Shown here: piece after piece, positions 1,754 to 23,970 of the stretch
Layout: every line of letters begins with the position of its first letter
Numbering within the stretch: the stretch's first letter is position 1
NCBI GenBank assembly: GCA_034416335.1
Contig: DAOULV010000023.1
Span: forward strand, 768 to 64,767
Length of the DNA: 64,000 nt
Origin: Dehalococcoidales bacterium
GTDB taxonomy: Bacteria; Chloroflexota; Dehalococcoidia; Dehalococcoidales; UBA2162
Reading direction: 5' to 3'
Made by a program: the position numbers and the translations under genes
The notes under the pieces: generated by a model
The model's database searches: none
What the model saw: only the letters and a program-made list of their open reading frames with translations
What the model was told of the DNA's origin: nothing

Positions 1754-1756
1754 AGC

Positions 1757-2026
1757 GTGTTCAGAATAGAGGTTTCGCCGGCCGCTGATCGGGATTTAGA
1801 TAAACTCAAAGGAAGGATACGTAGACAGGACTTTGAGCGTTTACGAACAGCAATTAGAAATCTAGCTGATGAACCTCGTCCCCAGGGTGTGAGAAAAATC
1901 AAAGGCGCTGAGAGGGCTTATCGCATCAGGATTGGTAGTTACAGAGTCGTGTATGAGGTATATAATGATGATAACTTGGTCCTGATTCTTCAGGTATCAC
2001 GAAGGAGTGAAACAACCTATCGATAA
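1757..2026 (+). CDS. RelE/ParE-family type II toxin
   Basis: ORF track 89 aa. RAYRIRIGSYRVVYEVYNDDNLVLILQVSRRSE is the typical RelE/ParE core. It starts 4 nt after the antitoxin stop. Confidence 0.8.
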   Translation: MFRIEVSPAADRDLDKLKGRIRRQDFERLRTAIRNLADEPRPQGVRKIKGAERAYRIRIGSYRVVYEVYNDDNLVLILQVSRRSETTYR

Positions 2027-2038
2027 CAGGTAGAATCA

Positions 2039-5173: not shown

Positions 5174-5322
5174 GTATAAATAGGAAATCAATGATTTTTA
5201 TATTACGAAGTTACCTATCAAAGCGGATTTCGGATAATGTCTTTGTTTTAGTATAAAACCTGTTAATTCTCCAAGCTATAGCTTGATTACTAGTTAAGGT
5301 CTAGCATAGTAATCTAAAAACC

Positions 5323-5351
5323 TTGACGTTTGTTGAACATAACATTATAAT
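5323..5351 (+). promoter_or_regulatory. sigma70-like promoter of the six-gene operon
   Basis: TTGACG (5323-5328), 17-nt spacer, TATAAT (5346-5351), in the 213-nt gap after the MTase. Confidence 0.55.
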
Positions 5352-5386
5352 CGAATACTTCACATATGTGGGGGGAGGTAAATAAT

Positions 5387-6286
5387 ATGCCAAACTACAT
5401 TAGAGATTTGTTTCTATATGTACCTGAGCCAGTATTAAGAAATTTATGCAAAGAGCATGGAATAAAGACTTCGGGATTAAAAAAACTGCAACTTGCCGAG
5501 CAGTTAGTAAAAGGGATTGAAACCCAAGAGTATGAGTCTATACTAGATCAACATCGTTATGCCGGAAGGGGAAGCGTGGTTTGGTTTAGACCTACTCGAA
5601 ATGGAGATACTTTCACAATATCCGATACAGAATTGCGAAACCATATACGTAACTATTGTAATGGTGATCCTTTTGAGAACGACCTTACACCAGAGCTTGA
5701 CCGGCATCCGAAAATAATAAGCTCTAGATTCCTCCATAATGATAAAATAATTATTTTAATGGCTCATATTGAGTTGTGGCCTCGAATTGTTGGCTTTGAA
5801 GTACAGGAAACGGAAGAGACGGTATTTTCTAGATTAATCATTCGACAAGGGTCTTTGTTTTTCGAGGCACGCGCTAGTCAATATAAAGCCGTTCTTATGG
5901 CAGAAGATATTGCGGCAGCACTGGATTGTACAGATATAGGTCAGATAACTCTCGGAGATGATGGTATGAATACTCTAATAGATCGACTGGGTGCATCGAC
6001 TATTGCAGCAAAACATAAACATAATTCAGGCGATTATGATACCACCGAAGTAGTTGTTAATCCTCAAATCGGAGATCTGAGAGACTCTTCACAATATTCC
6101 AATGAACTAAGCGGTCTAGAAGGACGTAGGAAACGAGTTTCTTTTGATTGCACTTTCGGTTCTGAGGTGGTAGCCGTAAGAGCGGAGCTTTATCCAAGAA
6201 CTGGGAATATAGTTTTTCGGTCATATGTAGATGAGAGGGTGTTAGATTATGTATTTGAAACAGTTAGACAAATTAAGGGATTATAA
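5387..6286 (+). CDS. hypothetical protein with an N-terminal SAP-like motif
   Basis: GGAGG 5374-5378 plus ATG 5387 is preferred over ATG 5366. LRNLCKEHGIKTSGLKKLQLAEQLV resembles a SAP DNA-binding motif. The rest is unassigned. Confidence 0.5.
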   Translation: MPNYIRDLFLYVPEPVLRNLCKEHGIKTSGLKKLQLAEQLVKGIETQEYESILDQHRYAGRGSVVWFRPTRNGDTFTISDTELRNHIRNYCNGDPFENDLTPELDRHPKIISSRFLHNDKIIILMAHIELWPRIVGFEVQETEETVFSRLIIRQGSLFFEARASQYKAVLMAEDIAAALDCTDIGQITLGDDGMNTLIDRLGASTIAAKHKHNSGDYDTTEVVVNPQIGDLRDSSQYSNELSGLEGRRKRVSFDCTFGSEVVAVRAELYPRTGNIVFRSYVDERVLDYVFETVRQIKGL

Positions 6287-6638
6287 CATTGCACAAGAGA
6301 CCATAGCTAAGCTAGATGAATATCTAAATAGCATCGCTGAAGAAGGAACAAAACGTTTCAGCCCCAATCACATGGCCGAACGGACTGGGCTTGACATTCA
6401 AATTTCTCAAACGATACTTCTCCGAACAGCTCAAATAGGAACAATTCAAACTTACTATGAAATAGAATGTCCTGAAGGTGATAGTGATTTTTTTGTTACG
6501 AGAATAGAAGATGTTGATTGGAATACTGAATGTGTATGTAGAGTGTGTGGCACAGAATATATACCAAATCCTTCTAATATTTGGGTGACGTTTAGTATTT
6601 TAGACCCTCCTTCCCCAAAAGCATTATGCCGCCTGTAA
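6249..6638 (+). CDS. hypothetical wHTH-like / Zn-ribbon-like protein
   Basis: ORF track 129 aa with a GAGGGTG SD before ATG 6249 and a 38-nt overlap with the upstream gene. It has an HTH-like SPNHMAERTGLDIQISQTILLRTAQ and a Cys cluster ECPEG...CVCRVCG. Confidence 0.45.
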   Translation: MYLKQLDKLRDYNIAQETIAKLDEYLNSIAEEGTKRFSPNHMAERTGLDIQISQTILLRTAQIGTIQTYYEIECPEGDSDFFVTRIEDVDWNTECVCRVCGTEYIPNPSNIWVTFSILDPPSPKALCRL

Positions 6639-7240
6639 GTGGTACTCACAAATCAGGTGGCAGCCTACAAGAACTAACTAAAAGACCAGAGTGGATAGAT
6701 TTCATCCCATCTCAGTTGGTGGCACTTGATAGAGATAAATACTCAGAATTACTAGGACGAGTTGAAGAATCACTCCTTTCAGGAACCAATAAAGAAAAAG
6801 GAGATAGTCTAGAAGAACTCGCTGATTTTCTATTAAGCTCAATCAAAGCATTTATTGTCGGGCAAAAAACCAACACATCAACCGGAGAGCTGGATAGATT
6901 CTTGAAAATAAGTAAGATTCCCGGGACATTTTTATGCGACTGGTCATTGTATATTCCCGTAGAATGTAAAAATTGGAATGATCCTGTGGGTGGGGATATT
7001 ATTGACCATCTTTATGCCAAAGCAAGGAATATGGATGCAAATCGAGGAATTTTATTTTCTCGTGAAGGTGTTACAGGCAATATGAGTCATGATGGTTGGA
7101 GACAAATCGTAAACTTATTTCAAAATTCCCGTTATATAACCATTGTTGTGGACATTGATGACCTAAGAAGTATCAACGCTGGAACTTGTCCATTGCATAT
7201 AATAGAGCAATGCCAGGAAAAAGTAATATTAAGCGCATGA
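6626..7240 (+). CDS. Mrr-like restriction endonuclease-domain protein
   Basis: ORF track 204 aa. GDSLEELADFLL...ELDRFL...YIPVECKNW...GILFSREGVT follows the Mrr_cat PD-(D/E)xK layout (D...ExK). It overlaps the upstream gene by 13 nt. Confidence 0.6.
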   Translation: MPPVSGTHKSGGSLQELTKRPEWIDFIPSQLVALDRDKYSELLGRVEESLLSGTNKEKGDSLEELADFLLSSIKAFIVGQKTNTSTGELDRFLKISKIPGTFLCDWSLYIPVECKNWNDPVGGDIIDHLYAKARNMDANRGILFSREGVTGNMSHDGWRQIVNLFQNSRYITIVVDIDDLRSINAGTCPLHIIEQCQEKVILSA

Positions 7241-7283
7241 ATAAGTACTATTTCAAACCTTTCAATTCGGTAATGAGTTATAG

Positions 7284-8192
7284 ATGATGAACGAACTTAA
7301 CAGCTCACATTTAAATATAATCGACACCATTAAGCTCAGGGGAAGAGAATTTACAGATGATGAGTTGAGCACTATTCGTGAAAGTGTGATAAATAACTTT
7401 GACAAAGGTCGTACTTATATATCAAGAGATATTTGTAATACCCTCAATTGGAAACAACCAAATGGTTGGCTAAAAGATAGAGCATGCCGTGACGTGTTAC
7501 TTGAATTAGAAAAAAGAGAAATAATCAAACTTCCACCTCCTTTGGTAGTTAAGAACAACAAAAAATCTAACAAAGGCAATAGTATAAGTTATTTGAAAAA
7601 TTTTGATCTGAATACACCTATATCCGAATTCCCAAATTCTATTGAACTAGAATTTGCAAAAGGTAATATTCAAGAGAAAGTCTGGAATGAACTGGTCAAT
7701 CAATATCATTATTTGGGACATAGCACTACTGTTGGTAGGTGCATTAAGTATCTGATTAGATCTAACGACAGGTTACTAGGGGCACTCTCATTTTCATCTC
7801 CGGCATGGGAACTGGAGACTAGGAATAATATCCTTAACTCAATAGGTATTGAAAATCCAAGAGATTACACAATAAATAATTCTAGATTTCTCATTTTACC
7901 TATAGTGCAAGTAAATAATCTTGCATCACATGTGTTAGCTATAGCAGCAAAAAAGATTGTTAACGATTGGAAGGACTATTATTCCATAATTCCTCTGATT
8001 GCTGAAACTTTCGTTCAACCATCTCGATTCGATGGCACCTGCTATAAGGCAGCCAACTGGATAGAAATTGGTACAACAAAAGGTTATGCTAAAAGAGGAA
8101 GATTTTATCGAAACAGTCAGGAACCCAAGAAGATATTTTTGTATGGTTTAGATAAAAGAATACGAACAAAGTTGCTACAATTAGAGAAATAG
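7284..8192 (+). CDS. DUF4338-domain protein (DruA-like)
   Basis: ORF track 302 aa. QYHYLGHSTTVGRCIKYLIRSNDRLLGALSFSSPAW and ETFVQPSRFDGTCYKAANWIEIGTTKGY match my memory of the DUF4338 signature. Confidence 0.65.
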   Translation: MMNELNSSHLNIIDTIKLRGREFTDDELSTIRESVINNFDKGRTYISRDICNTLNWKQPNGWLKDRACRDVLLELEKREIIKLPPPLVVKNNKKSNKGNSISYLKNFDLNTPISEFPNSIELEFAKGNIQEKVWNELVNQYHYLGHSTTVGRCIKYLIRSNDRLLGALSFSSPAWELETRNNILNSIGIENPRDYTINNSRFLILPIVQVNNLASHVLAIAAKKIVNDWKDYYSIIPLIAETFVQPSRFDGTCYKAANWIEIGTTKGYAKRGRFYRNSQEPKKIFLYGLDKRIRTKLLQLEK

Positions 8193-8200
8193 GCATTATA

Positions 8201-9256
8201 ATGAATGCACGAGATACCTTAAAGAATGCGCGAGAATTTATTCGTAAACAAGGCGGGCAAATTGCACCGCTCCCTATAACTGAAGAGGAATTGGATCCTT
8301 CAGCTCAAGATGATCAGTCACTTGAAACTTTTTCCTTAGAACCTACAAATTGCCAGAATGTTGAGTATTCATATCCAGATGACTGTGGAAACAGCGAATT
8401 CTCCTTTTTTGAAGATGGTAAACAGAGAACTCTACATATAGGATTTATAGAAACCGAATATGGAGATCATACTGCTATAATTCCGGTACATTTTGTAGTT
8501 GTTGCCGCAGTAATCTTACAACGGCAAGAGCGTGAATTAAGCCTTTGGGATCAGCCAGTGATCCGAAGTGGAATATTGGTCGAAAAGTCACTTGTTCCGA
8601 ATACACATGCTCTTAATGAATTTGAAAATCTCGGATTAGAAATAATCGATACAGAAGGTCTTGGAGGAGACTACTACGTATTGAGGAATAAAGCTTTACA
8701 AAAAGCAAAATCTATGAGATTAGAAGTCGAGGATGAATTAATACGTCGATGGCGTACAAGCGATGATGCCCAAAACGGCTTTTTAATAGTAGATGGGACG
8801 TTGATGAATTTTCGCGACGAGGAGAATGTTAGGCATTGTATTGGTGTCAGTAAATCATTCGGTACTAGATATTTCACCACAAGTGAGCACAATCGTATAT
8901 TACAAATGCAAGAATTTCAAAGATCTTGGACATTTCGTTTCCACCATCCTGGAGATGCACTAAATTTGGGAGTACGTGACCGAGTAAGTTGGTACCTAAG
9001 ACTTAGAACTAAAACTAACGCCGATCCTGAGTTTGGTCTTATCCGAGTAGAGATAAGTCACTCTTATCATAACCAGGCAACCGATTATGCTAATCGATTC
9101 TCTAAATCATTAATATCAGAAAGGCTACCTACTTCCTATCCGGATAGTCGGTGGGATAAACTTTTATATCCTATTCAAGAGTGTGAGAGTTATTTGTCAA
9201 GTGTAATACCTTCAATTCAAACCATCGCTTCCAGTATGAAAGGAGCGCTGTCATGA
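8201..9256 (+). CDS. NurA-like nuclease
   Basis: ORF track 351 aa. NurA-type motifs are FEDGKQR, RLEVEDE, FLIVDGTL and GVSKSF. It sits directly upstream of, and overlaps, a HerA-like ATPase. Confidence 0.55.
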   Translation: MNARDTLKNAREFIRKQGGQIAPLPITEEELDPSAQDDQSLETFSLEPTNCQNVEYSYPDDCGNSEFSFFEDGKQRTLHIGFIETEYGDHTAIIPVHFVVVAAVILQRQERELSLWDQPVIRSGILVEKSLVPNTHALNEFENLGLEIIDTEGLGGDYYVLRNKALQKAKSMRLEVEDELIRRWRTSDDAQNGFLIVDGTLMNFRDEENVRHCIGVSKSFGTRYFTTSEHNRILQMQEFQRSWTFRFHHPGDALNLGVRDRVSWYLRLRTKTNADPEFGLIRVEISHSYHNQATDYANRFSKSLISERLPTSYPDSRWDKLLYPIQECESYLSSVIPSIQTIASSMKGALS

Positions 9257-11052
9257 CATATCAGTCGGTACCACAGGAAGAATCGCCTGAAATGCAAAAT
9301 GAAGAGTTTAGCCTAAGTAATTTTCTGAATATTAGCTACGGAGTCATTGGTAGAACTGCATCGACGAGATTTGAACCCAACACTTCCGGTAAATTCCACT
9401 TTTGGTTATCGAAACTTGCGCCTAATCTTCCAGCTGATGATGATCATGAAGTTCCTACTCCTAACGAAACTCAAGAAGTTGGTAGAGACCGGGAAGAAGT
9501 GGCGCCAATAGAAATAGGAAATATCGTGGCTGCATATTCAGATGATGAGGTAGATATTACATTTGGTACAGTAACAGAAATGAGATCATATAGCGATGTG
9601 GAGAGTTTCATTTCTGATTATTTAAGTCATGATTTTGGCGATGCCACTATTCAAGTTCCGACTGATATTACTGAAGTAATTGTTGTCACTTGTGCTGTAA
9701 TGCGTAATATATCACTTAAGACCAAGCCCGTGGGGAGATCTCGAGTATATTTCCCGAGTACATTAGGGATTCAATTTTCCTACGGAATCGTTGATGAAAA
9801 TGGTGAAATAACCTTTAGAGGTGCGCCTATACCCTTTGGAGTATTTGAAAACGGTGATGGCACTATTGCTCCAATCAGTGTAGACGAAAATTTCTTACTC
9901 GGACCGGAAGGCGCTCATCTTAATGTTTCTGGTATTTCAGGCTTAGCATCAAAAACTTCAGCAATTGAATTTACGATCAACTCTCTTCTCACTCACACTC
10001 GTAAGAGACTGGCTGTAGTGATGTTCAATGTTAAAAGTCAAGATTTACTTTACATCGATCAGGTGAATCCGAGACTCGCGGAGGAAGAATGGTCACAATG
10101 GGCATATGACATTTTAGGTGTACCTCAAGAACCATTTGCTAATGCAAGTTTCTATGCACCTGCAGATCCTAGAAATGCACCAGATGGGACACAGAGTTCC
10201 AGAAGTCTTGAAGTACAGCCCTTCGAATGGAATTTACCTATGATTTATCAGCAAATTCCAACTCTATTTGACCAGATGGATTGGGATGATAGGATGGAAG
10301 GAGTCTGGTTTACAATACAGGGCGATATAGAAAGTGGCCAAATTTTATCTTACGGGCAAATGGTTAATTCGGTTCAAAATCTTATCAATACAGCAACAAA
10401 TAATCAGCGACAATGGGTAAGAGGCAACCATATTTCTACTTGGCAAAAAATGTTATCACACTTAAGGCGATTTCCACAATCTTATCAAGGATTGATAACA
10501 CCTGCTGGTACGGGTAGGGACATACCATGGAATGAGTTACAGGAAAATAGTGTTTGGATCATCGACATTGAAATGCTCGCTGATCGAGGTCAAAGGCTGG
10601 TATTTGGTCGTTCAGTGTATGCTATTAGCGAGATGTTAGAATCTGATGATAGCAACCTAGACGCAGTTGTAGTATTTGTTGACGAATTAAACAAATTTGC
10701 TCCTTCAGGAAATGTTAGAACTCCACTGAAATCTAGGTTAATTGATATCACAGCAAGAGGACGAAGCATAGGAATGGTTCTTTTCGGTGCGGAACAATTT
10801 GTTTCATCAGTAGACAGAGAAATCGTCGAAAATAGTTCAACGTATCTATTCGGACACACTGAAACAAATGAACTACGTAGCCCTACATTTAGTGCGTTGA
10901 GTGATGAAGTAAAAACAAAATTGACGATGCTTCCTCAAGGACAACTGTTAATTAAATTTGCAAAATTCCCACAGCCAATATTCTTGAAATTCCCATTTCC
11001 CGCATGTTGTCCTGGTGATCAATATAGTTCAGAAGACGTGGGAGATCAGTAG
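9253..11052 (+). CDS. HerA/FtsK-superfamily (DUF87-like) ATPase
   Basis: ORF track 599 aa with an ATGA overlap with the NurA-like gene. It has a HAS-barrel-like N-terminus, a deviant Walker A SGISGLASKTS (nt 9931-9960), a Walker B VVVFVDE (nt 10665-10686) and ARGRSIGMVLFGAEQ. Confidence 0.65.
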   Translation: MTYQSVPQEESPEMQNEEFSLSNFLNISYGVIGRTASTRFEPNTSGKFHFWLSKLAPNLPADDDHEVPTPNETQEVGRDREEVAPIEIGNIVAAYSDDEVDITFGTVTEMRSYSDVESFISDYLSHDFGDATIQVPTDITEVIVVTCAVMRNISLKTKPVGRSRVYFPSTLGIQFSYGIVDENGEITFRGAPIPFGVFENGDGTIAPISVDENFLLGPEGAHLNVSGISGLASKTSAIEFTINSLLTHTRKRLAVVMFNVKSQDLLYIDQVNPRLAEEEWSQWAYDILGVPQEPFANASFYAPADPRNAPDGTQSSRSLEVQPFEWNLPMIYQQIPTLFDQMDWDDRMEGVWFTIQGDIESGQILSYGQMVNSVQNLINTATNNQRQWVRGNHISTWQKMLSHLRRFPQSYQGLITPAGTGRDIPWNELQENSVWIIDIEMLADRGQRLVFGRSVYAISEMLESDDSNLDAVVVFVDELNKFAPSGNVRTPLKSRLIDITARGRSIGMVLFGAEQFVSSVDREIVENSSTYLFGHTETNELRSPTFSALSDEVKTKLTMLPQGQLLIKFAKFPQPIFLKFPFPACCPGDQYSSEDVGDQ

Positions 11053-11147
11053 AGCACAATATTGTCTCTAGCATTGTCATTAATCGCAGTGTTATTTACT
11101 GCTAATGCAGTATATTGTACTGCAAAAATATACAAGTTGATACACGA

Positions 11148-11972
11148 TTAAGGGAGGACCTTCTTCAGATACTCCTGCCAGTATCCTTCATCATCACCTA
11201 CTATCTCATGAAGCCAGCAATACATCATCAATATCTCGAATTCTTGTTTCCTGCCTTTTGTGAAAGCTTTTTTGGGCATTTTCGTATACAGTGAGTTGAT
11301 ATTAAACAGGTTCGTACCTTTCTTGAAATCGTATTCATACTTCATCCAAGGATCTTGTGTCGTTAATTTATGAGTGGATGGCCAGAGGTCCTTATTGTCC
11401 CAAAAATAATTCACCCAATTCTCTGCGAACGTCATAACGTTCACTCGATATTTCATCCATGTCTTATTAATCCAGTCATTGATGTCTTCAGAGAAAAAAG
11501 GTGACTCTGATCTCCAGGCTTGCTGACTCTGTATTCGATGATATTCTTTTATAAACAGGAACAGCATTTCGGTCTGGTCTCTGAGGAAAGGATACTTCTT
11601 AATCAACTTAGAATAACAGTCGTATGATAAGCTTCTGAATTCTTGGTCTGTGTTGAAGAGAAAGAAGAACACATTTTGATCTAGAATGAAACCAATAGCT
11701 CTATTAACATAGCTCCCATGGTCAGTGTTTATCCCAACAAGCCAATCCTGGATTTCTGGATCGTATTCCCGTAGCTGTTTTCGGTACTTTTCTATCTTCT
11801 CATTTTGTAATACGGTTTTATTCTCTGCAACCGTAATATTCAGGTAGTTATTAAAATATTCGAAAACATAGTTAACACATATCCGTAGATTTTCCGTTCG
11901 AGTATCGGCATCAAATTCATCAATCTTATCTTCTTTCTTACGGCGAATAATATAGTCTTCAAGTCTTAACAT
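11148..11972 (-). CDS. hypothetical Trp/Tyr-rich protein
   Basis: ORF track 274 aa with an AAGGAGA SD before ATG 11972. No family was recognised. Confidence 0.5.
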   Translation of the reverse strand: MLRLEDYIIRRKKEDKIDEFDADTRTENLRICVNYVFEYFNNYLNITVAENKTVLQNEKIEKYRKQLREYDPEIQDWLVGINTDHGSYVNRAIGFILDQNVFFFLFNTDQEFRSLSYDCYSKLIKKYPFLRDQTEMLFLFIKEYHRIQSQQAWRSESPFFSEDINDWINKTWMKYRVNVMTFAENWVNYFWDNKDLWPSTHKLTTQDPWMKYEYDFKKGTNLFNINSLYTKMPKKAFTKGRKQEFEILMMYCWLHEIVGDDEGYWQEYLKKVLP

Positions 11973-12150
11973 GTCATCTCCTTGATAATGTTACTTCAAC
12001 AAAATCTTTTCTATTTCCAAGGTAGATGTCAAGACTTACAGAATAGCATCTTTATGGAATAATGGAATAGCAAAAGGCGACGAATCAGCCGGTCATGAAG
12101 AATCGGCAGGCATTGATGATGAAGACAAAAATTGCGGTAAGAATTTCGTA

Positions 12151-12179
12151 TTGACTTCTGTTTTAGCCTCAATTATAAT
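12151..12179 (+). promoter_or_regulatory. near-consensus sigma70-like promoter with no ORF downstream
   Basis: TTGACT (12151-12156), 17-nt spacer, TATAAT (12174-12179). AGGAGG at 12191-12196 is not followed by a start codon. Confidence 0.4.
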
Positions 12180-12242
12180 CCAAAACAGAAAGGAGGCAAG
12201 CGGTCGGTTCAGCAAGCGACTGGTTGCTTTTCTGCCGAGAAG

Positions 12243-12285
12243 CTCTTAATCAGCCGGTTGGAGGTTCGAGTCCTCCGCGGCTCAG
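12243..12285 (+). repeat. tRNA-Lys(CUU) 3'-half fragment, att-like direct repeat copy 1
   Basis: Anticodon loop CTCTTAA, stem TCAGC, variable CGGTT, T-arm GGAGG-TTCGAGT-CCTCC, acceptor GCGGCTC plus A. No matching 5' half (GAGCCGC) lies upstream. It matches 16412-16454 at 42 of 43 positions. Confidence 0.75.
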
Positions 12286-12327: not shown

Positions 12328-12480
12328 TCAGTTTCTCAAATCTTCGTATATATCCTTGAAGTTTTCTTTCAATTCATCCGGAGATGTGCCCTGACTTCTA
12401 TAGTCGGGATATTCTTCTAGCCAGCCCACCCACATGCCATTCTCATGGTAGTAAATAAACTCAAGAGTTTCCATTTTCAT
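12328..12480 (-). CDS. small HicB/UPF0150-like protein (about 50 aa)
   Basis: Internal ATG 12480 of ORF 12328..12621. METLEFIYYHENGMWVGWLEEYPDYRSQGTSPDELKENFKDIYEDL resembles the HicB N-terminal fold. No HicA partner was seen. Confidence 0.4.
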   Translation of the reverse strand: MKMETLEFIYYHENGMWVGWLEEYPDYRSQGTSPDELKENFKDIYEDLRN

Positions 12481-12583
12481 CCTACCCGCTTGTAAAATCC
12501 AATCATTTGAAATTATATCAGAATTTCTATAATAAAAAATATGTTCTGTCAAAAGCAAATACAAAGAATGGGGGAAGATTAAT

Positions 12584-12985
12584 CTATTTCTTTCTGTCAG
12601 ACTTTCTAGGTTTTGATTCAAAGAATTTAATCACCTTCTCTCGCAGGTATCGTTCGGCAAATGAATTAACGGTGCCGTCAGGATATATTATTCTGTTGCC
12701 GATAAGAGGTTTCATTTTATTCTCTAATGCCACCTCAGAAAGAGAAGTCCCGAGTTTATCCTTGAGTTCTTTTAAACTGTAAGTAGTATTTTGCCAGAGT
12801 CATTCCCATAATTTATTTACCGATTCACCGGGAGAGCCTTTGATTTTACTGATACGCCTTATATCCAGGCTAGTCCATGCAACGATGATTTTTACCAGCT
12901 CTGGATTGTCATCGAGTAACAGCACAATCTCAGGCTTTTCATTCTGTTTGAACCAGTCCAACTTTTCGGTATATAGATTGTCCAT
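12584..12985 (-). pseudogene. paralogue of the 22150..22521 small protein, interrupted by an in-frame TGA
   Basis: It aligns end to end with the 127-aa ORF (DNLYTEKLDWFKQNEKPEIVL... and ...NRIIYPDGTVNSFAERYLRE). TGA 12800-12802 sits where the paralogue has Trp. ATG 12985 lies 4 nt after the ParB-like stop. Confidence 0.6.
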
Positions 12986-12989
12986 TGAA

Positions 12990-13637
12990 CTATACCCGGT
13001 ACCGAATATATGGGTAATTTTCAAGATAGAAACGTGCTAAGTGCGTGAGTGCATGGCTGCGTGATGGTTCTTCTTTTATTCTAGATATCAAATCCAGGGC
13101 GAGGTTTATTTCTCTGGCTTCAGATTCTTCTACCATAAAAGTAAAGCTGACGGGAATAGTGAACTTACCTCCTTCAGAAGTGTTTGATATGATTTCGTCT
13201 GCCTCAAGGTGTGATAGGCGTTTTAATTCCTCAATCTGTTTATTGTTATCTGGAAGAAGTGCCGTCAGTTCATCAGCTTCGTAGGATTTAAAAAGGTTTT
13301 CTAAAAGTATTGCTCTTCGCTCGGGGACTTCTTTACCAGACAGTCGATTAAGGGTTGCCAGATAAAGTCTTGTCTGAGAATCGTCAAGTTTCCAGACCAG
13401 GCAGTTTATTGTTCGATAACTAAGAGCGCGAAGTACACGTAAACGATTATGCCCATTGATAATCTGAAACTTACCTCTTTCGCTAGGATGCAGACGAACC
13501 GTCAACGGTTCATACCTGCCACTCCGCTCTATATGACGCCTTAGTTTACGGGCTGTTTCCGCATTCATAAAGTTACTGTTTTCTGGATGTTCGACCAATA
13601 ATTCAATAGGGATTTCCTGTATTTTTATATTATCCAT
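12990..13637 (-). CDS. ParB/Srx N-terminal-domain protein (ParB-like nuclease domain)
   Basis: ORF track 12990..13724. ATG 13637 is preferred because it avoids a 77-nt overlap. IPIELLVEHPENSN...YEPLTVR...FQIINGHNRLRVLRAL is the ParB-N pattern. Confidence 0.65.
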   Translation of the reverse strand: MDNIKIQEIPIELLVEHPENSNFMNAETARKLRRHIERSGRYEPLTVRLHPSERGKFQIINGHNRLRVLRALSYRTINCLVWKLDDSQTRLYLATLNRLSGKEVPERRAILLENLFKSYEADELTALLPDNNKQIEELKRLSHLEADEIISNTSEGGKFTIPVSFTFMVEESEAREINLALDLISRIKEEPSRSHALTHLARFYLENYPYIRYRV

Positions 13638-13647
13638 TTTATCTATT

Positions 13648-14595
13648 CTATTCGAATAAGTTTCCCTGAGAAGGAATCTCAGTGGAATTCGACCAGTGTC
13701 CGACAATATTACAGCTTCCGCCAATATCCGGGTTCATGCAGCCACAAACTGAGATCTCTATACCGTATATACCAGCGATTCTCTTTACATTCTCGTATAT
13801 TTCATTCCGCGTAGAGGGAGGTAGAGGGACGATAGAAGAATGAGGAGAAAGAACAGGCATACGCCCGGATAAATAGTGACTCATTATACGTTTGGTTATC
13901 GAACTGTCGTTTATATATTTTTGCAGGTTTCGAGCAATCATCGGACGTAGAAATAGTGTGCTTATTGCCGCTTTTTTTATGCCCGTATTAGCTAAAGTCT
14001 CTAATAGACTATTCATGGATACCTCAGTATCGGTAATTCCTGGTATTATGGGTATTATCCTAGCCTCAACTTGTATACCTGCATTGACCAGAGCTTCTAT
14101 TTGCTTGAGACGTACACTTACAGAAGCAGCATTGGGCTCAAAGATGCGTCTTACCGAATCATCTGCGGTGATTGTGCCTATCTGGACTCTGACGATATGA
14201 GCATGTTCTCGCAAAAGACCTAGAGTTTTCTCCGGTATTTTCCCCTTGGTTAAAAAAGCCACCCCAATATCTTTGGCAAGCAATAGATTTAAAACACGGT
14301 GACTTAGTTCCAGCACGTTCTCTAGAGGTTGAAAAAGGTCACTCGAGGGGCTGAAATACACTGCCTGCGGTAATTTCCTTTTTAATGAGAGTTCTTTTTC
14401 CAATTTTTCCAGGATGTTAACGTATAAAGAAACTTTGTTGTCGCCTGGATATACGGAGTATCCGCGAGCGTAGCAATAGAGACAACTATGAGCACATCCC
14501 AGGGTTAAATTAACTGTCGGAATATTAGACAGGCAGGAGAGACTGGATGGAGTGAGAATTGCAGATTTTCTTTCTGTATATTTCAACACTACCAT
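13648..14595 (-). CDS. radical SAM protein, COG1533 / SplB-like ('DNA repair photolyase') family
   Basis: ORF track 315 aa. The CxxxCxxC cluster GCAHSCLYCYARG lies near the N-terminus. Size and layout are typical of COG1533. Confidence 0.75.
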   Translation of the reverse strand: MVVLKYTERKSAILTPSSLSCLSNIPTVNLTLGCAHSCLYCYARGYSVYPGDNKVSLYVNILEKLEKELSLKRKLPQAVYFSPSSDLFQPLENVLELSHRVLNLLLAKDIGVAFLTKGKIPEKTLGLLREHAHIVRVQIGTITADDSVRRIFEPNAASVSVRLKQIEALVNAGIQVEARIIPIIPGITDTEVSMNSLLETLANTGIKKAAISTLFLRPMIARNLQKYINDSSITKRIMSHYLSGRMPVLSPHSSIVPLPPSTRNEIYENVKRIAGIYGIEISVCGCMNPDIGGSCNIVGHWSNSTEIPSQGNLFE

Positions 14596-16208
14596 ATGTA
14601 TTCACCTTTAAGATTCAGGTAATGCTCTTTAGACTTGTGTGAAAATATGTAAGCAAAGTTACCTCTAAGTTTTAAGGTTTTGGTCATATCACAGACCATA
14701 ATGTCATTAAGCGAAAAAGCAGTCATGTGATCGATGAGTTCACGAGAAGTCAGATCCATATCGATGATAATCGTGTAATCACAAACAGTCATGAGGCAAT
14801 CAATAATACTTCTCCCGTCTGTAGTTACCAGACATTCGGGGTTGAATTTCCGTGCGGGAAGTACGAAATCCTGGTTCTTTATATCTCCACATACTTTAGA
14901 ATCTAACAATGTCATGCTCTTATAGAACCGGGTAAGTGATACAAGAGAGTATATTTTTTCGTTCGTTCTATACTTACTTGAATTCGAAATTGCCAGATTG
15001 TCTACTCCCCCTCCGGTTGGAGACAGACTGTTTTCAGGAAGGACCGATTCGATGTTAGATGTAGGAAATAAATCTTTGAGCATCTCTGTTAACTTTTCAG
15101 AATCTAAATTTACAAAGAAGAAATTACCGCAGGTATCTAGCACTTTCGAGATCAAAGCAATTCTTATCCCGTCGGTTTTAGTTGACGGAAGTACCCGACT
15201 TAACCAATTCCTGTAGTCATCGCCAGTATATTCCAGACTACCAATTTACGCTTGCATATTATCTTGAAGAAAGAATCTGGCAGGATTAGGAGGTTCCAGA
15301 TCAACAGATCGCAGTCGGAATCTCGGTGTGAATCCGAATTGTCCTCCCAATTTCTGGATTTTACGGCAAAGTGTGGCAACAAGGCTGCTGCTTCCAGCTC
15401 CTATATCTAAAAACTCTATAGTAATATCATCATTGAAATATTTGTGCTCGGATTGGATTACAGGTTTAACAATACCCTGAAATATTTGTCTTCCTCGTTC
15501 GGCGGTCCATGGGTCGGTTGCATATTTAATACTATCTACAAATTTATTTAGTAGTTGGAAACTTTTCCCCCGCTTTTCTATAGACACTGCAGGATAGAAG
15601 AAGAGTGACATCGGAGAATCCTTAGATAGTGAATACTGCCTGTAATGAAAAAATAATTCCGGTTTCTTATCTCCATTAACTGTAATCACAGGAAGAAAAC
15701 GGGAGTCGTCTAAAGAGTTAGGAAACTTCAGTTTAGCTAAGAGATAGCAAGGATTCCGCGTTGTACAGATTCCGGCAGCGAGTATCTCAGCGTCGGAATC
15801 TGTTAAGATTATTCCGAAGCATTCGAAACCTAAAACCGCCCTAAGTGCGCTTAACCATGATTGAGTAGCGCAGGTTTCCGAATAATTTGATAGAAAAGTG
15901 TTGAGTAAAGAAAAGTAATGGTAACAGAAATCTTTCATTAATGAGGAACTAAATCCACAGTGAATATAATTTCTCCAAACAAAATGAAGCTTGTAAAGAT
16001 TATCCTCTAATTCCTTGTGTTTAAGTTCATACAATGGCTGCCAGTATGCATTCCAATCCTTTGTTTCTAAAATAAACCTTCCACTATTAAAAACCTTAAC
16101 ACTGGTAAGGATAGTATCTTTCTCCAGGACTGACAAAAGTAGTCCCCTATTACGGACTCTTATAAGATTATTTAGCGGTATCGCTGCTGTTTTCATTTCC
16201 GATTCCAA
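14589..16208 (-). pseudogene. about 539-codon class I SAM-methyltransferase-like gene interrupted by a single in-frame TAA
   Basis: ORFs 15246..16208 and 14589..15155 share one frame and are separated only by TAA 15246-15248, with 30 sense codons bridging them. Motif I IEFLDIGAGSS and RSVDLEP lie just before the stop. The 3' end overlaps the rSAM start (ATGGTAG). Confidence 0.55.
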
Positions 16209-16230: not shown

Positions 16231-16279
16231 AGAACAAGTGTTCTATTGGCATAATAACACTATATAATTTTTAAGACAA
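16231..16279 (-). promoter_or_regulatory. promoter plus LexA/SOS-box-like operator of the islet operon
   Basis: On the minus strand: TTGTCT (16279-16274), 17 nt, TATTAT (16256-16251), then the palindrome AGAACAAGTGTTCT (16231-16244, GAAC-N4-GTTC) 22 nt upstream of ATG 16208. Confidence 0.45.
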
Positions 16280-16411
16280 TGGTATTTTGACGTGATTATC
16301 GTGTGACGTTGAGTAAAGAAAAGCAGATTCGTTTTTTAACAAACCTGCTTTAACAAGATACGTACGTTCTTTATATCGATAAATATGATTCTTTTTATCC
16401 GGGAAAATCAC

Positions 16412-16454
16412 CTCTTAATCAGACGGTTGGAGGTTCGAGTCCTCCGCGGCTCAG
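16412..16454 (+). repeat. tRNA-Lys(CUU) 3'-half fragment, att-like direct repeat copy 2
   Basis: Same 43-nt sequence as 12243-12285 with one mismatch, in the anticodon stem. No 5' half lies upstream. Confidence 0.75.
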
Positions 16455-16496: not shown

Positions 16497-16949
16497 TCAG
16501 GTAACATTCCCTATAAACGGGTTCTCGGCGCGTTTCTCTATTTGTAGACAAATCGATGTTTCGATTCTGATAATCCCGTCTATCTTACCTATCTCACTTT
16601 CCAGCAAGTTGTAAAGTTCTTCGGTCGAACTAACCCACCAGACGGTCCTGACATTAAACAGTCCACTTGTTGCACCTACCCAGGCAGCATTCGGATATTT
16701 ACTCAGCGCCTTCAGGACCGATTTTATTTTTTCGTGAGAAACCTCAAGTGAAATGAACGCCACGACGGGTAACCCGACTTTTTCAAGGTTTGGGACCGCT
16801 CTGATGTGTATTATCCCCTGCTCAAGCAGGTTTTTCATTCTGCGTCTTATCGTGGAAGAGCTGGTGTTTAGTTGCTTGGCTAGTGAGGTACTGTTGACAT
16901 TAGCGTCGTGCATCAGTAGTTCTATTATTTGAGTATCCAGTAAATCCAT
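16497..16949 (-). CDS. Lrp/AsnC-family transcriptional regulator
   Basis: ORF track 16497..16976. ATG 16949 has a GAGAGG SD. There is an HTH (TSLAKQLNTSSSTIRRRMKNLLEQGII) plus a C-terminal RAM-like domain. Confidence 0.8.
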   Translation of the reverse strand: MDLLDTQIIELLMHDANVNSTSLAKQLNTSSSTIRRRMKNLLEQGIIHIRAVPNLEKVGLPVVAFISLEVSHEKIKSVLKALSKYPNAAWVGATSGLFNVRTVWWVSSTEELYNLLESEIGKIDGIIRIETSICLQIEKRAENPFIGNVT

Positions 16950-17132
16950 TGTAATACCTCTCAGGCAATTTAGCACAATATTTACGATTATACAAGCAAT
17001 ATAGTCAAATTACCTGACAATCCATCAATTATAAATCATGCCTGCGCGACATATGGGAACCCGACATCGAAAGCATTATTAGACCGGACCCAATTATATG
17101 TGTATAACCGGGGTCCTGTAGATATGCCGGGA

Positions 17133-22149: not shown

Positions 22150-22521
22150 TCAAACAATCTTACTACCCTGTTCCCGAAGGTATTTTTCGACGAACGAATT
22201 CAATGTGCCGTCAGGATAAATGACCCGGTTACTCATGAGAGGCTTAATCTTACTCTCCAGAGCTGCCACAGAGAGAGAAGTTCCGACTTTCTCCTTAAGG
22301 TCTTTTAAATCATACTCGGTATTTTCCCATAACCATACCCAGGACTCGACCTCTGATTCACCAGGAGTACCTTTGAGTCTCTTTACAGGCTTAGTATCCA
22401 GACTTGTCCAAGCAATCGATATCTTTATCAGGTCTGGCTCATCTTTGAGAAATAAAACGATTTCCGGCTTCTCATTCTGTTTGAACCAGTTCAGTTTCTC
22501 AGTGTATAAATCTTCAGTCAT
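22150..22521 (-). CDS. conserved small protein of unknown function (paralogue of 12584..12985)
   Basis: ORF track 22150..22533. ATG 22521 is chosen by homology. An alternative GTG 22533 abuts the rSAM stop. Confidence 0.55.
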   Translation of the reverse strand: MTEDLYTEKLNWFKQNEKPEIVLFLKDEPDLIKISIAWTSLDTKPVKRLKGTPGESEVESWVWLWENTEYDLKDLKEKVGTSLSVAALESKIKPLMSNRVIYPDGTLNSFVEKYLREQGSKIV

Positions 22522-22533
22522 TTCCTGATACAC

Positions 22534-23757
22534 TTATAATACGCAATTACATAGACCCAGGTTTTTCTCAATTCCCAATTTTGACCATAGCTGATGTTCC
22601 TCCAGACAGAGTGCAACCTCAAGGTCAGGACATATTTTTCGTGCCGCCTGGATAATAGTGGAGTATATCCTTTCTCTCAATTCTGGAGAATATCGGGCTC
22701 TACCATCCCCCGATTTTCTCAAAGTATTGTTAATATGATCCGATATGGAGTTATGCAAGCCTAACTTATGCTCCATAAGTTTACGCGCACCTTGATAAAT
22801 ACATATACCACCAAGAGTAAGTCGCTGAACGGGAATCTCTTTTAGGAGTCGAACCGTAAATGCAGTATATTTTTCTTCCCATCCATCAACAGGAATAACA
22901 GGCATCATAACTACACGGACCGGGTAACCGGCAGAAGCCACACTACGCATGGCTTCAAGGCGTTCCTCTATTCCAGGAACATTCTCTTCGTACATTTCAC
23001 ATACTTCGGGTGGGTTAACACTCCAGGACAGAATCGTGTTCCCATGGTGTTTAGTATCCAATAATCTATTAACGTTGGTACTTTTAGTTAAGAGTATCAA
23101 TCGAGCCTGGGGATGTTCCGCAAAAAAAGGAACCAAGATACTTGAATAAGCCGTCAGGGAATCAAGAGCTAAAGGGTCTTGGAGCTTGCCGATATAAAAT
23201 GGAGTGGGTTTTCCTATATTACAAGCGGTATTGTTTATTGTATTAATCATCTCTGGAAGGTTTACGTATATCTTAACTGTAGGAGAAAATCTGACGCCCT
23301 GAGTCCCAGCGAGGTAACAGTATTTGCAACCGAACGGGCAAAAACCATACGGAGAAAAATGCCAGTAGTTCGGGCAGGTATTCCCTTCTTCCCGGCTAAA
23401 CCGGACGGCGCTCTTAAGTTCTCCGAAAACAAGTGTCTTTTTACCTGCCTGATGTAAAGCAAGAGTTTCTCTCTCATCCAGAATTATCCGGTTATGAGGG
23501 GTGTCAGGACATTTTACTGTTTCAGTTCCTGGATAAAGGCTGCATATGCGTTCTACAAATCTGTGGCGTTCCGGTGTAGAGACGCTTCCCCTGGCCAGAA
23601 AAATCCTAGATATTTCCAGGTGTTCAGGACGAGTCGGCTGATAATCAATCGGTAGACCGATTCTTTGTTGCGTATTATCAAACAAACCAAGTTGTCTAGA
23701 TTTTCCACCCATCCGTTTCCTCATTATTAACTGGTAATATGAATCGCTTTCTTTCAA
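22534..23757 (-). CDS. radical SAM protein, spore-photoproduct-lyase (SPL)-like family
   Basis: ORF track 407 aa. Motifs are FCPFGCKYCYLAG (CxxxCxxC), LILLTKS and ILSWSVNPPEV...AGYPVRVVMMPVIP. Confidence 0.75.
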   Translation of the reverse strand: MKESDSYYQLIMRKRMGGKSRQLGLFDNTQQRIGLPIDYQPTRPEHLEISRIFLARGSVSTPERHRFVERICSLYPGTETVKCPDTPHNRIILDERETLALHQAGKKTLVFGELKSAVRFSREEGNTCPNYWHFSPYGFCPFGCKYCYLAGTQGVRFSPTVKIYVNLPEMINTINNTACNIGKPTPFYIGKLQDPLALDSLTAYSSILVPFFAEHPQARLILLTKSTNVNRLLDTKHHGNTILSWSVNPPEVCEMYEENVPGIEERLEAMRSVASAGYPVRVVMMPVIPVDGWEEKYTAFTVRLLKEIPVQRLTLGGICIYQGARKLMEHKLGLHNSISDHINNTLRKSGDGRARYSPELRERIYSTIIQAARKICPDLEVALCLEEHQLWSKLGIEKNLGLCNCVL

Positions 23758-23838
23758 CGAATTTTATATCCACCACAGGTAACCGCCTTATAGGAACAGT
23801 TTACTCTCACTGAAATTTAATGGTATTACATTTATATA

Positions 23839-23852
23839 CGAACATATGTACT
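23839..23852. promoter_or_regulatory. LexA/SOS-box-like palindrome (imperfect)
   Basis: CGAACATATGTACT has a GAAC-N4-GTAC core with one core mismatch. It lies 82 nt upstream of the rSAM ATG 23757, next to a TATATAAAT -10-like element on the minus strand. Confidence 0.3.
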
Positions 23853-23897
23853 ACTTACTGATTTTATCATCAGAACGCTAGAGGAGCAAGACTATTG

Positions 23898-23906
23898 TGC
23901 TATAAT
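23898..23906 (+). promoter_or_regulatory. extended -10 element upstream of aor
   Basis: TGcTATAAT lies 65 nt upstream of ATG 23971. No good -35 was seen. Confidence 0.35.
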
Positions 23907-23970
23907 AGTGCCGGTTTTATCAGGACTACCACAATGAAGGAATTACATCCAGTGCCGAAAGGAGAGAACA

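Follow-up and report, generated by a model that had tools for sequence, protein, structure and literature searches.

The operon lies on the minus strand of a 64 kb stretch of DNA, referred to here as the window, and comprises four tightly coupled genes, A-B-C-D, which are listed with their associated features in Table 1. The A stop and the B start overlap in the sequence ATGGTAG (14589–14595), the B stop at 13648 is separated from the C ATG at 13637 by a gap of 10 nt (13638–13647), and a 4-nt gap separates the C stop at 12990 from an ATG at 12985, all as read in an earlier note, which had described the genes as translationally coupled. The three genes named there, encoding a methyltransferase-like, a radical SAM and a ParB-like protein, were recovered as A, B and C, but the count of three did not stand, as the ATG at 12985 opens a fourth conserved gene, D.

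Table 1. Positions of the operon, its control elements, its flanking repeats and the second module in the window.
Feature	Position	Strand	Remarks
Left direct repeat, 43 nt	12243–12285	+	fragment from the 3' portion of a tRNA, reaching from the anticodon-loop region to the acceptor end
Operon of four genes, A-B-C-D	12584–16208	-	tightly coupled
Gene D, pseudogene, 133–134 aa	12584–12985	-	unannotated family; TGA at 12802–12800
Gene C, intact, 215 aa	12990–13637	-	ParB/Srx N-terminal domain and RHH-like tail
Gene B, intact, 315 aa	13648–14595	-	radical SAM, COG1533/SPL superfamily
Gene A, pseudogene	16196/16208–14589	-	single frame of ~535 codons; TAA at 15248–15246
LexA (Cheo-box type) operator-like palindrome AGAACAAGTGTTCT	16231–16244		6 nt downstream of the -10 hexamer
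Sigma-70-like operon promoter	16251–16279	-	TTGTCT, 17 nt, TG-TATTAT; aligns with orthologous -35/-10
Conserved upstream element	16274–16293	-	consensus GTGACAnnAACCnCTTG, here CACGTCAAAATACCATTGTC; overlaps the -35
Right direct repeat, second copy of the tRNA 3' fragment	16412–16454	+	98% identical to left repeat; spacing 4169
D paralogue, intact, 127 aa	22150–22533	-	phmmer 6e-44 to D; second module
SPL-family radical SAM protein, 407 aa	22534–23757	-	Pfam SPL (PF20903) 4e-31, 108.5 bits
LexA-box-like palindrome AGTACATATGTTCG (minus strand)	23839–23852		after the -10 of the second module

The window copy is a decaying version of the cassette, with in-frame stops in both A and D. The TGA in D stands where the family alignment has an invariant tryptophan, and phmmer gave hits to both halves of D. 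Recoding of the stops as selenocysteine or pyrrolysine was rejected, the codon in A being TAA and that in D falling at the invariant tryptophan. With A and D nonsense-mutated, at most B and C are still produced from this copy. The first reading had spelled out neither these mutations nor the second module at 22–24 kb. Recoding is also at odds with ten other loci that contain stops in A, at differing positions and using all three stop codons; several of these stops align with tryptophan, arginine or glutamine codons in relatives. A was disrupted in 17 of 93 loci and B almost never, indicating that A is dispensable for whatever maintains B under selection.

Orthologues of A without disruption are 527–544 residues long and combine an N-terminal half of no recognised family with a C-terminal half that resembles class I SAM-dependent methyltransferases, with motif I reading FLDIGAGSSS. 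The family alignment revealed that D264, G266 and G268 are invariant and that D299, at the end of strand 2, is nearly so, while the strand-4 region reads SKLFNN. The AF2 model of the orthologue P0019 (pLDDT 87.7) gave weak matches over its C-terminal half only, and all significant matches were class I methyltransferases. The best of them were AzeJ, HNMT, MidA and SABATH, which are small-molecule or protein methyltransferases matched at low TM-scores; DNA methyltransferases were absent from these best matches. Divergent relatives of A gave weak Pfam matches to Methyltransf_28, 31, 23 and 12 at the same place, one of them above the cut-off. A itself had no Pfam match to PF01555, PF02384 or PF00145, and the DPPY-type amino-methyltransferase motif is absent, so that A is not classed with the DNA amino- or C5-methyltransferases. 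A profile search returned family members only among its best 150 matches, and the family comprises 404 clusters at 50% identity. A is thus assigned a predicted class I SAM-dependent methyltransferase fold, with a predicted activity, in agreement with the earlier description of such a fold behind a large N-terminal region of unknown type.

B contains the cluster motif CxxxCxxC as GCAHSCLYCYARG (C34-x3-C38-x2-C41) and passes the Pfam Radical_SAM model PF04055 (2.5e-13, 51 bits against a gathering score of 29.5), consistent with its earlier placement as a COG1533-type radical SAM gene. The match to SPL (PF20903) was weak, at 22.6 against a cut-off of 27, and TIGR04070 gave 23.4 against 400. The best NCBIfam matches were PA0069 (NF033668; 104.8 bits against 360) and Rv2578c (NF038135; 99.5 against 430), models that align to the N-terminal two thirds of B only, as they do for the B protein of locus L083. 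No PDB sequence match was found for B, and its 632 homologues go by the names 'DNA repair photolyase' or 'SPL family radical SAM'. From these scores B is classed as a member of the radical SAM superfamily that falls below the SPL, PA0069 and Rv2578c family cut-offs.

C passes the Pfam ParB_N model PF02195 (28.4 bits against 26.3), and its alignment contains an invariant G62-H63-x-R65 that is common to ParB-methyltransferase fusions; this GHNR motif and the model score bear out the ParB/Srx N-terminal domain noted earlier. The tail is a conserved strand-helix-helix that appears RHH-like from its sequence pattern, the match to RHH_1 being non-significant (E 0.99). The best PHROG match of C was phrog_498, a DNA methyltransferase family, through its ParB part. 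A partition-type ParB was rejected for C on scores of 29.8 against 58.45 (TIGR00180) and 41.9 against 201.5 (RepB). No ParA turned up, whether within the islet or in the top neighbour families of cassette loci, and a repeat search found no centromere-type repeat arrays, in line with the earlier view that the module does not serve partitioning. The D family is highly conserved, with WxWLW and YPDG motifs and a basic tail, and every one of its 190 homologues is annotated 'hypothetical'. The AF2 model of D (pLDDT 50.6) was too poor for a fold search.

Linkage of these families in other genomes, which the earlier note had set beforehand as a test of its reading, was found as A-B(-C-D) in about 100 loci, whose hosts include Chloroflexota/Dehalococcoidia, Planctomycetota, Gemmatimonadota and Chitinispirillaceae. 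Where the contig is long enough, B comes after A in essentially all cases, with C and D next in most. Guild partners inside or beside the cassette are an SPL-like radical SAM enzyme, a ParB-N6_N4 DNA methyltransferase and a TudS-like 2-thiouracil desulfurase (PF04463), the last in or next to the cassette at L017, L083, L110 and L111; a sister module consists of the ParB-N6_N4 DNA methyltransferase, the SPL-like radical SAM enzyme and D. A related intact module of type 2 occurs in the window itself (22150–23852), where an SPL-like radical SAM protein and a D paralogue have their own box. This 407-residue protein gave 126 bits against the TIGR04070 cut-off of 400, so that it is not a strict SPL orthologue, and it aligned to the SPL structure 4FHG from G. 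thermodenitrificans at 6e-21. In this alignment a lysine occupies what we take to be the position of the H-atom-donor cysteine of SPL (Cys140/141), 4FHG presumably being a Cys mutant. The type-2 module adjoins an AFOR gene in two related genomes, and the repeat search found no flanking repeat around it in the window.

The loci with A fall into three clades, each of which has the upstream element GTGACAnnAACCnCTTG, and TAGnACAnnTGTTCT, after the -10, is invariant in orthologous promoters. In 39 loci the -10 is closely followed by a box of the GAAC-N4-GTTC type, between -23 and -93 of A and over the transcription start; cassettes of clades 2 and 3 are without it. The 64 kb window contains one GAAC-N4-GTTC match, that at 16231–16244, which is about the number expected by chance. 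Across 847 kb of related loci, 34 of the 35 sites with at most one mismatch fell within 110 nt upstream of guild genes. Because the position of the box is conserved and these sites lie upstream of guild genes, the SOS-like operator is considered a phylogenetic footprint rather than a chance palindrome. Boxes equivalent to that of the second module were found at L030, L032, L041 and L058. Rfam gave nothing at the gathering threshold, only a chance-level match to an L20 leader near the promoter.

In one Planctomycetota lineage a genuine lexA gene heads the operon. At locus L083 a gene that passes the LexA model TIGR00498 (177 bits, cut-off 111) precedes A by 30 nt, giving the order lexA-A-B-C, and phmmer revealed the same arrangement in L017. 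The SOS-box-like operator reported ahead of the operon is matched by a conserved location in orthologues and by adjacent lexA genes, and the putative LexA site, being conserved in orthologues, places the cassette in a predicted LexA regulon at the level of the operator. The box is kept in type-2 and B+SPL modules, which are without C and in one case also without D, suggesting that a factor of the host binds it, as opposed to a cassette product. C or D as the binder was disfavoured, as the B+SPL module of L032 retains the box in the absence of both.

LexA of Dehalococcoides is reportedly also a binder of the GAAC-N4-GTTC box (Fernandez de Henestrosa and colleagues are said to have described this in 2002). 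The same sequence is the LexA box of B. subtilis (PMC4234289). Among COG1533 genes, splB recurs as an SOS gene (PMC8565304, PMC3323433, PMC3765255), Rv2578c carries a LexA ChIP peak (PMC3381160) and PA0069 is among 15 SOS genes of P. aeruginosa (10.1101/2022.03.14.484287).

The cassette forms an islet of 3–4.5 kb between direct repeats of tRNA or tmRNA 3' ends. ARAGORN detected no intact tRNA in the window. Flanking tRNA/tmRNA-derived repeats were found in at least 15 further loci, compared with repeats of at least 14 nt in just 3% of control comparisons, and islets of A-B only or A-B-C-D occupy six or more different target genes, as expected from the earlier claim of a mobile islet. Searches with jackhmmer and Pfam found no integrase between the repeats; integrases lay outside only, in L006 and L016, where integrase-bearing islands with the same repeat adjoin the cassette islet. 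Two of the 150 nearest neighbour ORFs encode integrases, both beyond the repeats. In the window a neighbouring island has the same repeat, and the part of it that was covered revealed no integrase; in some other loci toxin-antitoxin genes lie beside the cassette. Tyrosine integrases reportedly leave repeats that run from the anticodon loop to the 3' end (43–53 nt) or from the T-loop to the 3' end (17–29 nt), as Williams is said to have described in 2002. Such enzymes, acting in trans, are the probable means by which the islet moves.

On balance the region is probably what remains of a DNA-damage-response cassette, now decaying, that is repressed by LexA and moves horizontally. The conserved operator, the adjacency of lexA, the ParB_N domain and the ParB-fused DNA methyltransferase of the sister module all favour the damage-inducible, DNA-acting module that the earlier note had suggested. 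LexA would repress the cassette promoter while DNA is undamaged, and RecA-stimulated cleavage of LexA after damage would free it. B, as a [4Fe-4S]/SAM enzyme, would then generate a 5'-deoxyadenosyl radical that could take hydrogen from a damaged or target DNA base, leading to direct reversal or processing of the lesion. C may bind DNA through its ParB/Srx N-domain and RHH-like tail and position the enzyme, while A, with a SAM-binding Rossmann half and a novel N-terminal half, may be a partner that uses SAM to act on the substrate of B. D would be a small accessory protein common to both module types. The ParB-fused N6/N4 DNA methyltransferase takes the position corresponding to A in the sister module, which argues that the substrate is DNA. 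Counting against the damage-response reading are the fold matches of A, which are not DNA methyltransferases, the missing box of clades 2 and 3, the frequent disruption of A beside an intact B, the scores of B below the SPL, PA0069 and Rv2578c cut-offs, and the poor model of D. Many cassette hosts live as anaerobes in the subsurface, a setting in which UV photoproducts are unlikely, and this counts against it too.

It is conceivable, if rather unlikely, that A and B form the core of an unrecognised SOS-induced enzyme pair performing a new DNA reaction. This could mean reversing lesions of a class distinct from the spore photoproduct, or modifying bases in response to damage, and the two genes would travel as an integrase-less islet that possibly inserts itself at tRNA/tmRNA 3' ends. 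Doubtful to the same degree is an epigenetic system of DNA base hypermodification, in which A or the ParB-methyltransferase together with the radical SAM enzyme would write a modified base and C would target DNA, for self-marking, anti-restriction or defence. Pairs of a radical SAM enzyme and a SAM-dependent transferase build hypermodified bases in the wybutosine and 7-deazaguanine pathways, a genuine N6_N4 DNA methyltransferase occurs in the sister module, a defence-type island adjoins the window copy, phage families include B-like proteins, and ParB-like proteins are found in the Dnd and Dpd modification systems (PMC10853773, PMC5699537). Marking of a genome should however be constitutive, not repressed through a LexA operator or placed on one transcript with lexA. 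Moreover, no conserved restriction or effector partner was found among the neighbours, A is often lost while B persists, and PADLOC recognised neither the radical SAM protein nor A or D, giving for C a weak match to a type II methyltransferase model.

That the cassette drives its own mobility, by integrase-independent, SOS-triggered excision and integration at tRNA/tmRNA 3' ends with A and B as the minimal unit or with the whole set, is improbable. The islets lie exactly between repeats at their several target genes, just two integrases occur among the 150 nearest neighbour ORFs, both outside the repeats, and SOS control is typical of mobile elements; but the repeat architecture is reportedly just what tyrosine integrases leave, same-repeat integrase islands adjoin in L006 and L016, neither the methyltransferase fold of A nor the TIM-barrel-type radical SAM fold of B is recombinase-like, and the type-2 module sits beside AFOR in two genomes and is without a flanking repeat in the window. 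Equally improbable is the repair or salvage of damaged RNA or nucleotides instead of DNA, for example of thiolated tRNA bases damaged by near-UV, which would account for the TudS-like genes and for fold neighbours of A that are not DNA methyltransferases, whereas DNA is indicated by the two domains of C, ParB_N and RHH-like, and by the DNA methyltransferase fused to ParB, and the TudS-like gene occurs in few loci only. An SOS-triggered toxin or abortive-infection module, in which B would damage DNA and A would be the antidote, or a plasmid-type partition system, is hardly credible despite the island location, the nearby toxin-antitoxin genes, the frequent decay and the ParB_N domain, since an antidote role for A would make its loss beside an intact B lethal, ParA and centromere-type repeats were not found, TIGR00180 and RepB scores were far below cut-off, and PADLOC matched nothing of the cassette as a system beyond the weak type II methyltransferase-model match of C.

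Across PADLOC, Pfam, NCBIfam, PHROGs and the literature, no characterised system matched the cassette, in line with the earlier note, which knew of none with this composition. In PADLOC-DB 2.0 A, B and D had no matches and C matched weakly, to the ParB part of the type II methyltransferase model; a known defence system was rejected, as neither PADLOC nor PHROGs gave a convincing match for A or D. The closest named relatives of B, PA0069 of P. aeruginosa and Rv2578c of M. tuberculosis, belong to the same superfamily and are LexA/SOS-regulated. LexA-regulated splB genes of Alpha- and Betaproteobacteria, Bacteroidetes and Verrucomicrobia resemble B, which likewise lies behind a LexA-type operator, and SOS control of COG1533 'SplB-like' genes is documented (PMC3381160, PMC8565304, PMC3323433, 10.1101/2022.03.14.484287). 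No description was found of PA0069, Rv2578c or splB with A, C or D partners or as tRNA-flanked islets. SplB itself is a radical SAM enzyme with a CxxxCxxC-Y motif that acts on DNA and is co-encoded with a small protein, SplA, an arrangement that the cassette shares, with DNA as its predicted substrate; D, however, is without relation to any annotated family, and both B and the 407-residue protein fall under the TIGR04070 cut-off for SPL. To our knowledge the cassette hosts are not spore formers, unlike the carriers of SplB, and we know of no COG1533 enzyme except SPL with an established biochemical function.

Resemblances to other kinds of system are partial. The imuA-imuB-dnaE2 cassette is likewise a LexA-controlled multi-gene unit, patchy and laterally transferred and in some cases with its own lexA (Erill and colleagues reportedly found it linked to lexA2 in some lineages), but its proteins are entirely different, the present cassette having no polymerase and no RecA-like ImuA. 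The ParB domain closest to that of C is found in the ParB_N-N6_N4 DNA methyltransferase fusions that phages, plasmids and islands carry. Such a fusion replaces A and C in the sister module, whereas the ParB_N domain in the window is a separate protein with an RHH-like tail and A has neither the DPPY-type motif nor a PF01555 match. CIME-like elements are similarly small, with att-like repeats of tRNA 3' ends, no internal recombinase and sometimes an integrase island in tandem, but here the same cargo recurs at many tRNA, tmRNA and even dnaN 3'-end sites, usually without a helper island.

SOS-regulated 'SplB-like' COG1533 genes have been reported in the LexA regulons of many phyla since about 2002–2012, with experimental SOS support in Pseudomonas and Mycobacterium. 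The cassette gives these enzymes fixed partners, namely a SAM-binding protein of a new family, a ParB/Srx-RHH protein predicted to bind DNA and a new small protein. In its variants the added member is a genuine DNA methyltransferase, an enzyme resembling SPL or one resembling thiouracil desulfurase. This fixed partner set narrows the hypotheses to DNA-directed SAM chemistry, and intact, compact operons are available for expression tests. It is also a further case of an accessory module for the damage response that spreads as a minimal islet, targeting tRNA genes and encoding no integrase of its own. The four-gene radical SAM unit is widespread and unstudied, and provides a new handle on damage-induced enzymes of this kind.

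A compact set of four genes was found on the minus strand of the window between 12.5 and 16.3 kb (see the table). The frames were re-read and the coordinates and spacings in the earlier note were right, while its gene set of A (methyltransferase-like), B (radical SAM) and C (ParB_N) has gained a fourth gene, D, and nonsense mutations in A and D. Three-frame reading joined two ORFs into the single A frame, which is interrupted by a lone TAA; D is inactivated by a TGA at an invariant Trp, and B and C are intact. The window copy is a decaying example of the cassette. A search of Pfam, NCBIfam, PADLOC, PHROG and the literature matched no characterised system of A-B-C-D composition, in agreement with the first reading, which knew of none. 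The cassette is best explained, with fair probability, as a LexA-controlled, mobile DNA-damage-response cassette centred on the COG1533 radical SAM protein. Two further features were observed beside the genes. Within the islet, an ORF of 97 aa runs into the 3' end of D and by eye resembles the N-terminal domain of a HicB/UPF0150-type antitoxin, for which a Pfam search gave no match. A terminator-like hairpin lies between an Lrp/AsnC-family gene and the cassette promoter, where Rfam returned only the L20 leader at chance level (21 bits vs 58.7).

Positions of the cassette genes, flanking repeats and neighbouring features
Feature	Locus	Position	Strand	Remarks
Gene A	window	16208..15246 + 15155..14589	-	~535 codons; TAA at 15248-15246
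Gene B	window	14595..13648	-	315 aa; ATG overlaps A stop (ATGGTAG, 14595-14589); ends 10 nt before C ATG (13637)
Gene C	window	13637..12990	-	intact
Gene D	window	12985..12584	-	fourth frame; ATG four nt past C; TGA at 12802-12800
97-aa ORF	window	12328-12621		
LexA-type box	window	16232-16243		
GTGACAnnAACCnCTT(G) element	window	16274-16293		
Terminator-like hairpin	window	16320-16351	-	
Lrp/AsnC-family gene	window	16497-16976		
tRNA 3' fragments	window	12243-12285, 16412-16454		43 nt, 98% identical
Second module, genes	window	22150-23757		407-aa SPL-family protein, 127-aa D paralogue
Second module, whole	window	22150-23970		apparently intact
Box of second module	window	23839-23852		
RHH/RelE-like pair	window	1418-2026		by eye
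N6 methyltransferase	window	2039-5173		1044 aa; Type ISP C-terminal specificity domain
DruA/DUF4338-like protein	window	7284-8192		
351-aa + 599-aa pair	window	8201-11052		second member matches PADLOC mad8 and HerA
TudS-like gene (PF04463/DUF523)	L017	3914-4378		
TudS-like gene	L083	11286-11750		
TudS-like gene	L110	2754-3230		
TudS-like gene	L111	10445-10900		
Flanking repeat	L006			53 nt, tRNA-Met
Flanking repeat	L008			17 nt, tmRNA end
Flanking repeat	L021/L023			25-29 nt, tmRNA end; A-B only
Flanking repeat	L109			41 nt, tRNA-Arg
Flanking repeat	L076 + L016			46-48 nt
Flanking repeat	L003/L047	L003: 6751-6767, 10752-10768		17 nt, dnaN 3' end; left L003 copy in dnaN, not tRNA
Macro-domain + DarT region	L009	8781-10882		

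Gene A had no match in Pfam, NCBIfam, PADLOC or PHROG. Intact A-type proteins (527-544 aa) form ~105 clusters, every one labelled hypothetical, and an exhaustive profile search gave a family of 404 clusters at 50% identity. The alignment revealed an invariant motif I, D-x-G-x-G(S)G, with an acidic residue past the next strand. The AlphaFold2 model of the orthologue P0019 was confident (pLDDT 87.7, pTM 0.88), and its Foldseek comparison with PDB and BFVD returned class I SAM methyltransferases only (AzeJ, HNMT, MidA/NDUFAF7 and SABATH enzymes), at low TM-scores and confined to the C-terminal half; the N-terminal ~250 residues gave no fold match in these databases. Weak Methyltransf_28/31/23/12 matches, one exceeding the cut-off, lie at the same position in divergent family members. 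The earlier description of A, a class I methyltransferase fold preceded by a large N-terminal region of unknown kind, holds, and nothing in A indicates a DNA amino- or C5-methyltransferase motif.

Gene B encodes a radical SAM protein (PF04055, 51 bits, over the cut-off) with a weak SPL match besides. Its best NCBIfam models were PA0069 (104.8 bits) and Rv2578c (99.5 bits), both far under the curated cut-offs, and its 632 close homologues are labelled 'DNA repair photolyase' (COG1533) or 'SPL family radical SAM'. Direct reversal or processing of a lesion by B is the leading candidate mechanism within the damage-response explanation. The ParB_N domain of C scored 28.4 bits against a cut-off of 26.3, and its G-H-x-R motif, invariant among aligned orthologues, is common to the ParB part of ParB-DNA-methyltransferase fusions. 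A strand-helix-helix pattern, RHH-like in appearance, is conserved over the last 50 residues of C; the match to Pfam RHH_1 is not significant (E 0.99). The D family comprises 190 proteins, all hypothetical, with a mean identity of 64%; the motifs WxWLWxN and YPDG are invariant in it and the tail is basic. A structure model of D was too poor to use.

The window contains one GAAC-N4-GTTC sequence, located 6 nt past the extended -10 of a sigma-70-like promoter. Since about one such match per 64 kb is expected by chance, the match alone proves nothing and its position is what counts. In 13 aligned orthologous upstream regions conservation was almost limited to the -35 region element, the -10 and TAGnACAnnTGTTCT, and 39 loci, nearly all of the window copy's clade, have a sequence with at most two mismatches to AGAACAnnTGTTCT at 23-93 nt before A. 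Sites with at most one mismatch numbered 35 in 847 kb of non-redundant locus sequence, 34 of them within 110 nt upstream of a gene of this linked set. The putative SOS-box-like operator described earlier is therefore conserved in position among orthologues. The box also precedes type-2 modules, which pair an SPL-like radical SAM gene with a D paralogue (the window copy, L030, L041, L058), and the B+SPL pair of L032; because L032 keeps it without C or D, its binder would likely be a host factor. Dehalococcoides LexA reportedly binds GAAC-N4-GTTC. In B. subtilis the same sequence serves as the LexA box (PMC4234289). A Planctomycetota lineage without the GAAC box encodes a LexA equivalog (177 bits vs cut-off 111) 30 nt upstream of A and in the same orientation (L083), and phmmer identified the same gene upstream of A in L017, giving the order lexA-A-B-C-TudS-like-SPL-like-D and independent support for LexA control of the cassette. 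COG1533 splB genes recur in LexA regulons (PMC8565304, PMC3323433, PMC3765255); for Rv2578c, ChIP-seq gave a LexA peak and induction depends on RecA (PMC3381160), and 10.1101/2022.03.14.484287, citing Cirz 2006, places PA0069 among the 15 SOS genes of P. aeruginosa.

The GTGACAnnAACCnCTT(G) element overlaps the -35 and is conserved upstream of A in all three clades (e.g. L001, L013, L016, L023), even in those without the LexA-type box, C and D; it might be bound by a sigma factor or an activator, or else by A or B. Locus L009, in a Chloroflexi MAG, has another LexA-like box, AGAACTTGTGTTCT, ~180 nt in front of a gene pair for a Macro-domain protein and DarT, an ssDNA thymidine ADP-ribosyltransferase. 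The pair is located ~3 kb downstream of the cassette, and the arrangement suggests an SOS-controlled DarTG-like module.

The linkage of the gene families first grouped in the window is conserved in other genomes. Three A orthologues that were looked up had the orders A-B-C-D, A-(B)-C-D and A-B, and across 24 genome and 80 metagenome loci B follows A wherever the contig continues, and most loci also have C and D after it. These loci come from Dehalococcoidia and other Chloroflexota, from Planctomycetota, Gemmatimonadota and Chitinispirillaceae; one Planctomycetota-type clade has no more than A-B. The second module of the window consists of an SPL-family radical SAM gene (Pfam SPL 4e-31) and, after it, a D paralogue that is intact; the module lies in a low-GC patch with an AFOR gene adjoining. 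Both modules are in tandem in L041, and in L032 B is followed by an SPL-like gene. In the related Dehalococcoidales genome CP070800 a ParB_N-N6_N4 DNA methyltransferase fusion, which the window copy does not have, precedes the type-2 module. This replacement of A and C by a ParB-fused DNA methyltransferase in the sister module is the best argument for DNA as the substrate. Hypermodification of DNA by the cassette, the most probable of the rival readings, is unlikely.

TudS-like genes of the 2-thiouracil desulfurase family are inserted inside or directly after the cassette, adjoining an SPL-like gene. The order is A-B-C-TudS-like-SPL in L017 and L083, with D next in L083 and the end of the contig in L017, and A-B-TudS-like in L110 and L111. 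These neighbours hint that the cassette may be connected with thiolated-pyrimidine or photodamage chemistry, and they point towards repair of RNA or nucleotides, a function given a small probability beside the DNA-damage response.

The mobility of the islet, proposed from the sequence alone, was borne out by flanking repeats derived from tRNA or tmRNA. Two copies of a tRNA 3' fragment flank the window cassette, and the window has no intact tRNA; elsewhere, ~19 loci have a tRNA or tmRNA gene no more than ~1 kb from the cassette, and exact flank-to-flank repeats of 14-58 nt bracket it in at least 15 loci (control placements, 3%). DNA_pol3_beta is among the commonest neighbour families. Repeats left by tyrosine integrases extend from either the anticodon loop or the T-loop as far as the 3' end; because the cassette's repeats have this shape, CIME-like mobilisation in trans is favoured, though not settled, over a self-encoded mechanism. 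The segments between repeats (3.1-4.5 kb) are essentially the cassette alone, and integrases were found only at L006 and L016, beyond the repeats. Among the 150 nearest neighbour ORFs, only 2 are integrases. That the cassette serves its own mobility is about as improbable as RNA or nucleotide repair. To the left of the islet, window 1-12243 is a low-GC (0.34-0.42) defence-type island in which no integrase was found; full-length Type ISP enzymes also have nuclease and helicase parts, for which its N6 methyltransferase is too short. Island and islet look like tandem insertions, since they share the tRNA-fragment repeat.

Gene A was disrupted in 17 of 93 loci; 12 of these were split, ten by one in-frame stop. 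Disruptions were fewer in B (~2/78), C (2/43) and D (2/37), and per kb A was disrupted ~four times oftener than B. Single in-frame stops cut A in L019, L028/L038, L039, L043, L074, L084, L087, L113 and the window, with 10 nonsense changes vs 2 frameshifts. In relatives, the codons at several of these stops specify Trp, Arg or Gln, and Arg244 was struck twice independently; G:C-to-A:T transitions would fit, judged from relatives' codons rather than ancestral ones. Either counter-selection of A or a mutational process may account for the recurrence. Since A is often lost with the downstream radical SAM gene retained, it is unlikely to be B's antidote or to be essential to B's function. A toxin or partition role is the least probable reading of the cassette.

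The cassette extends a known kind, the SOS-regulated SplB-like radical SAM genes, to which it adds an operon of defined composition, two new protein families and a mode of spread that is unusual.
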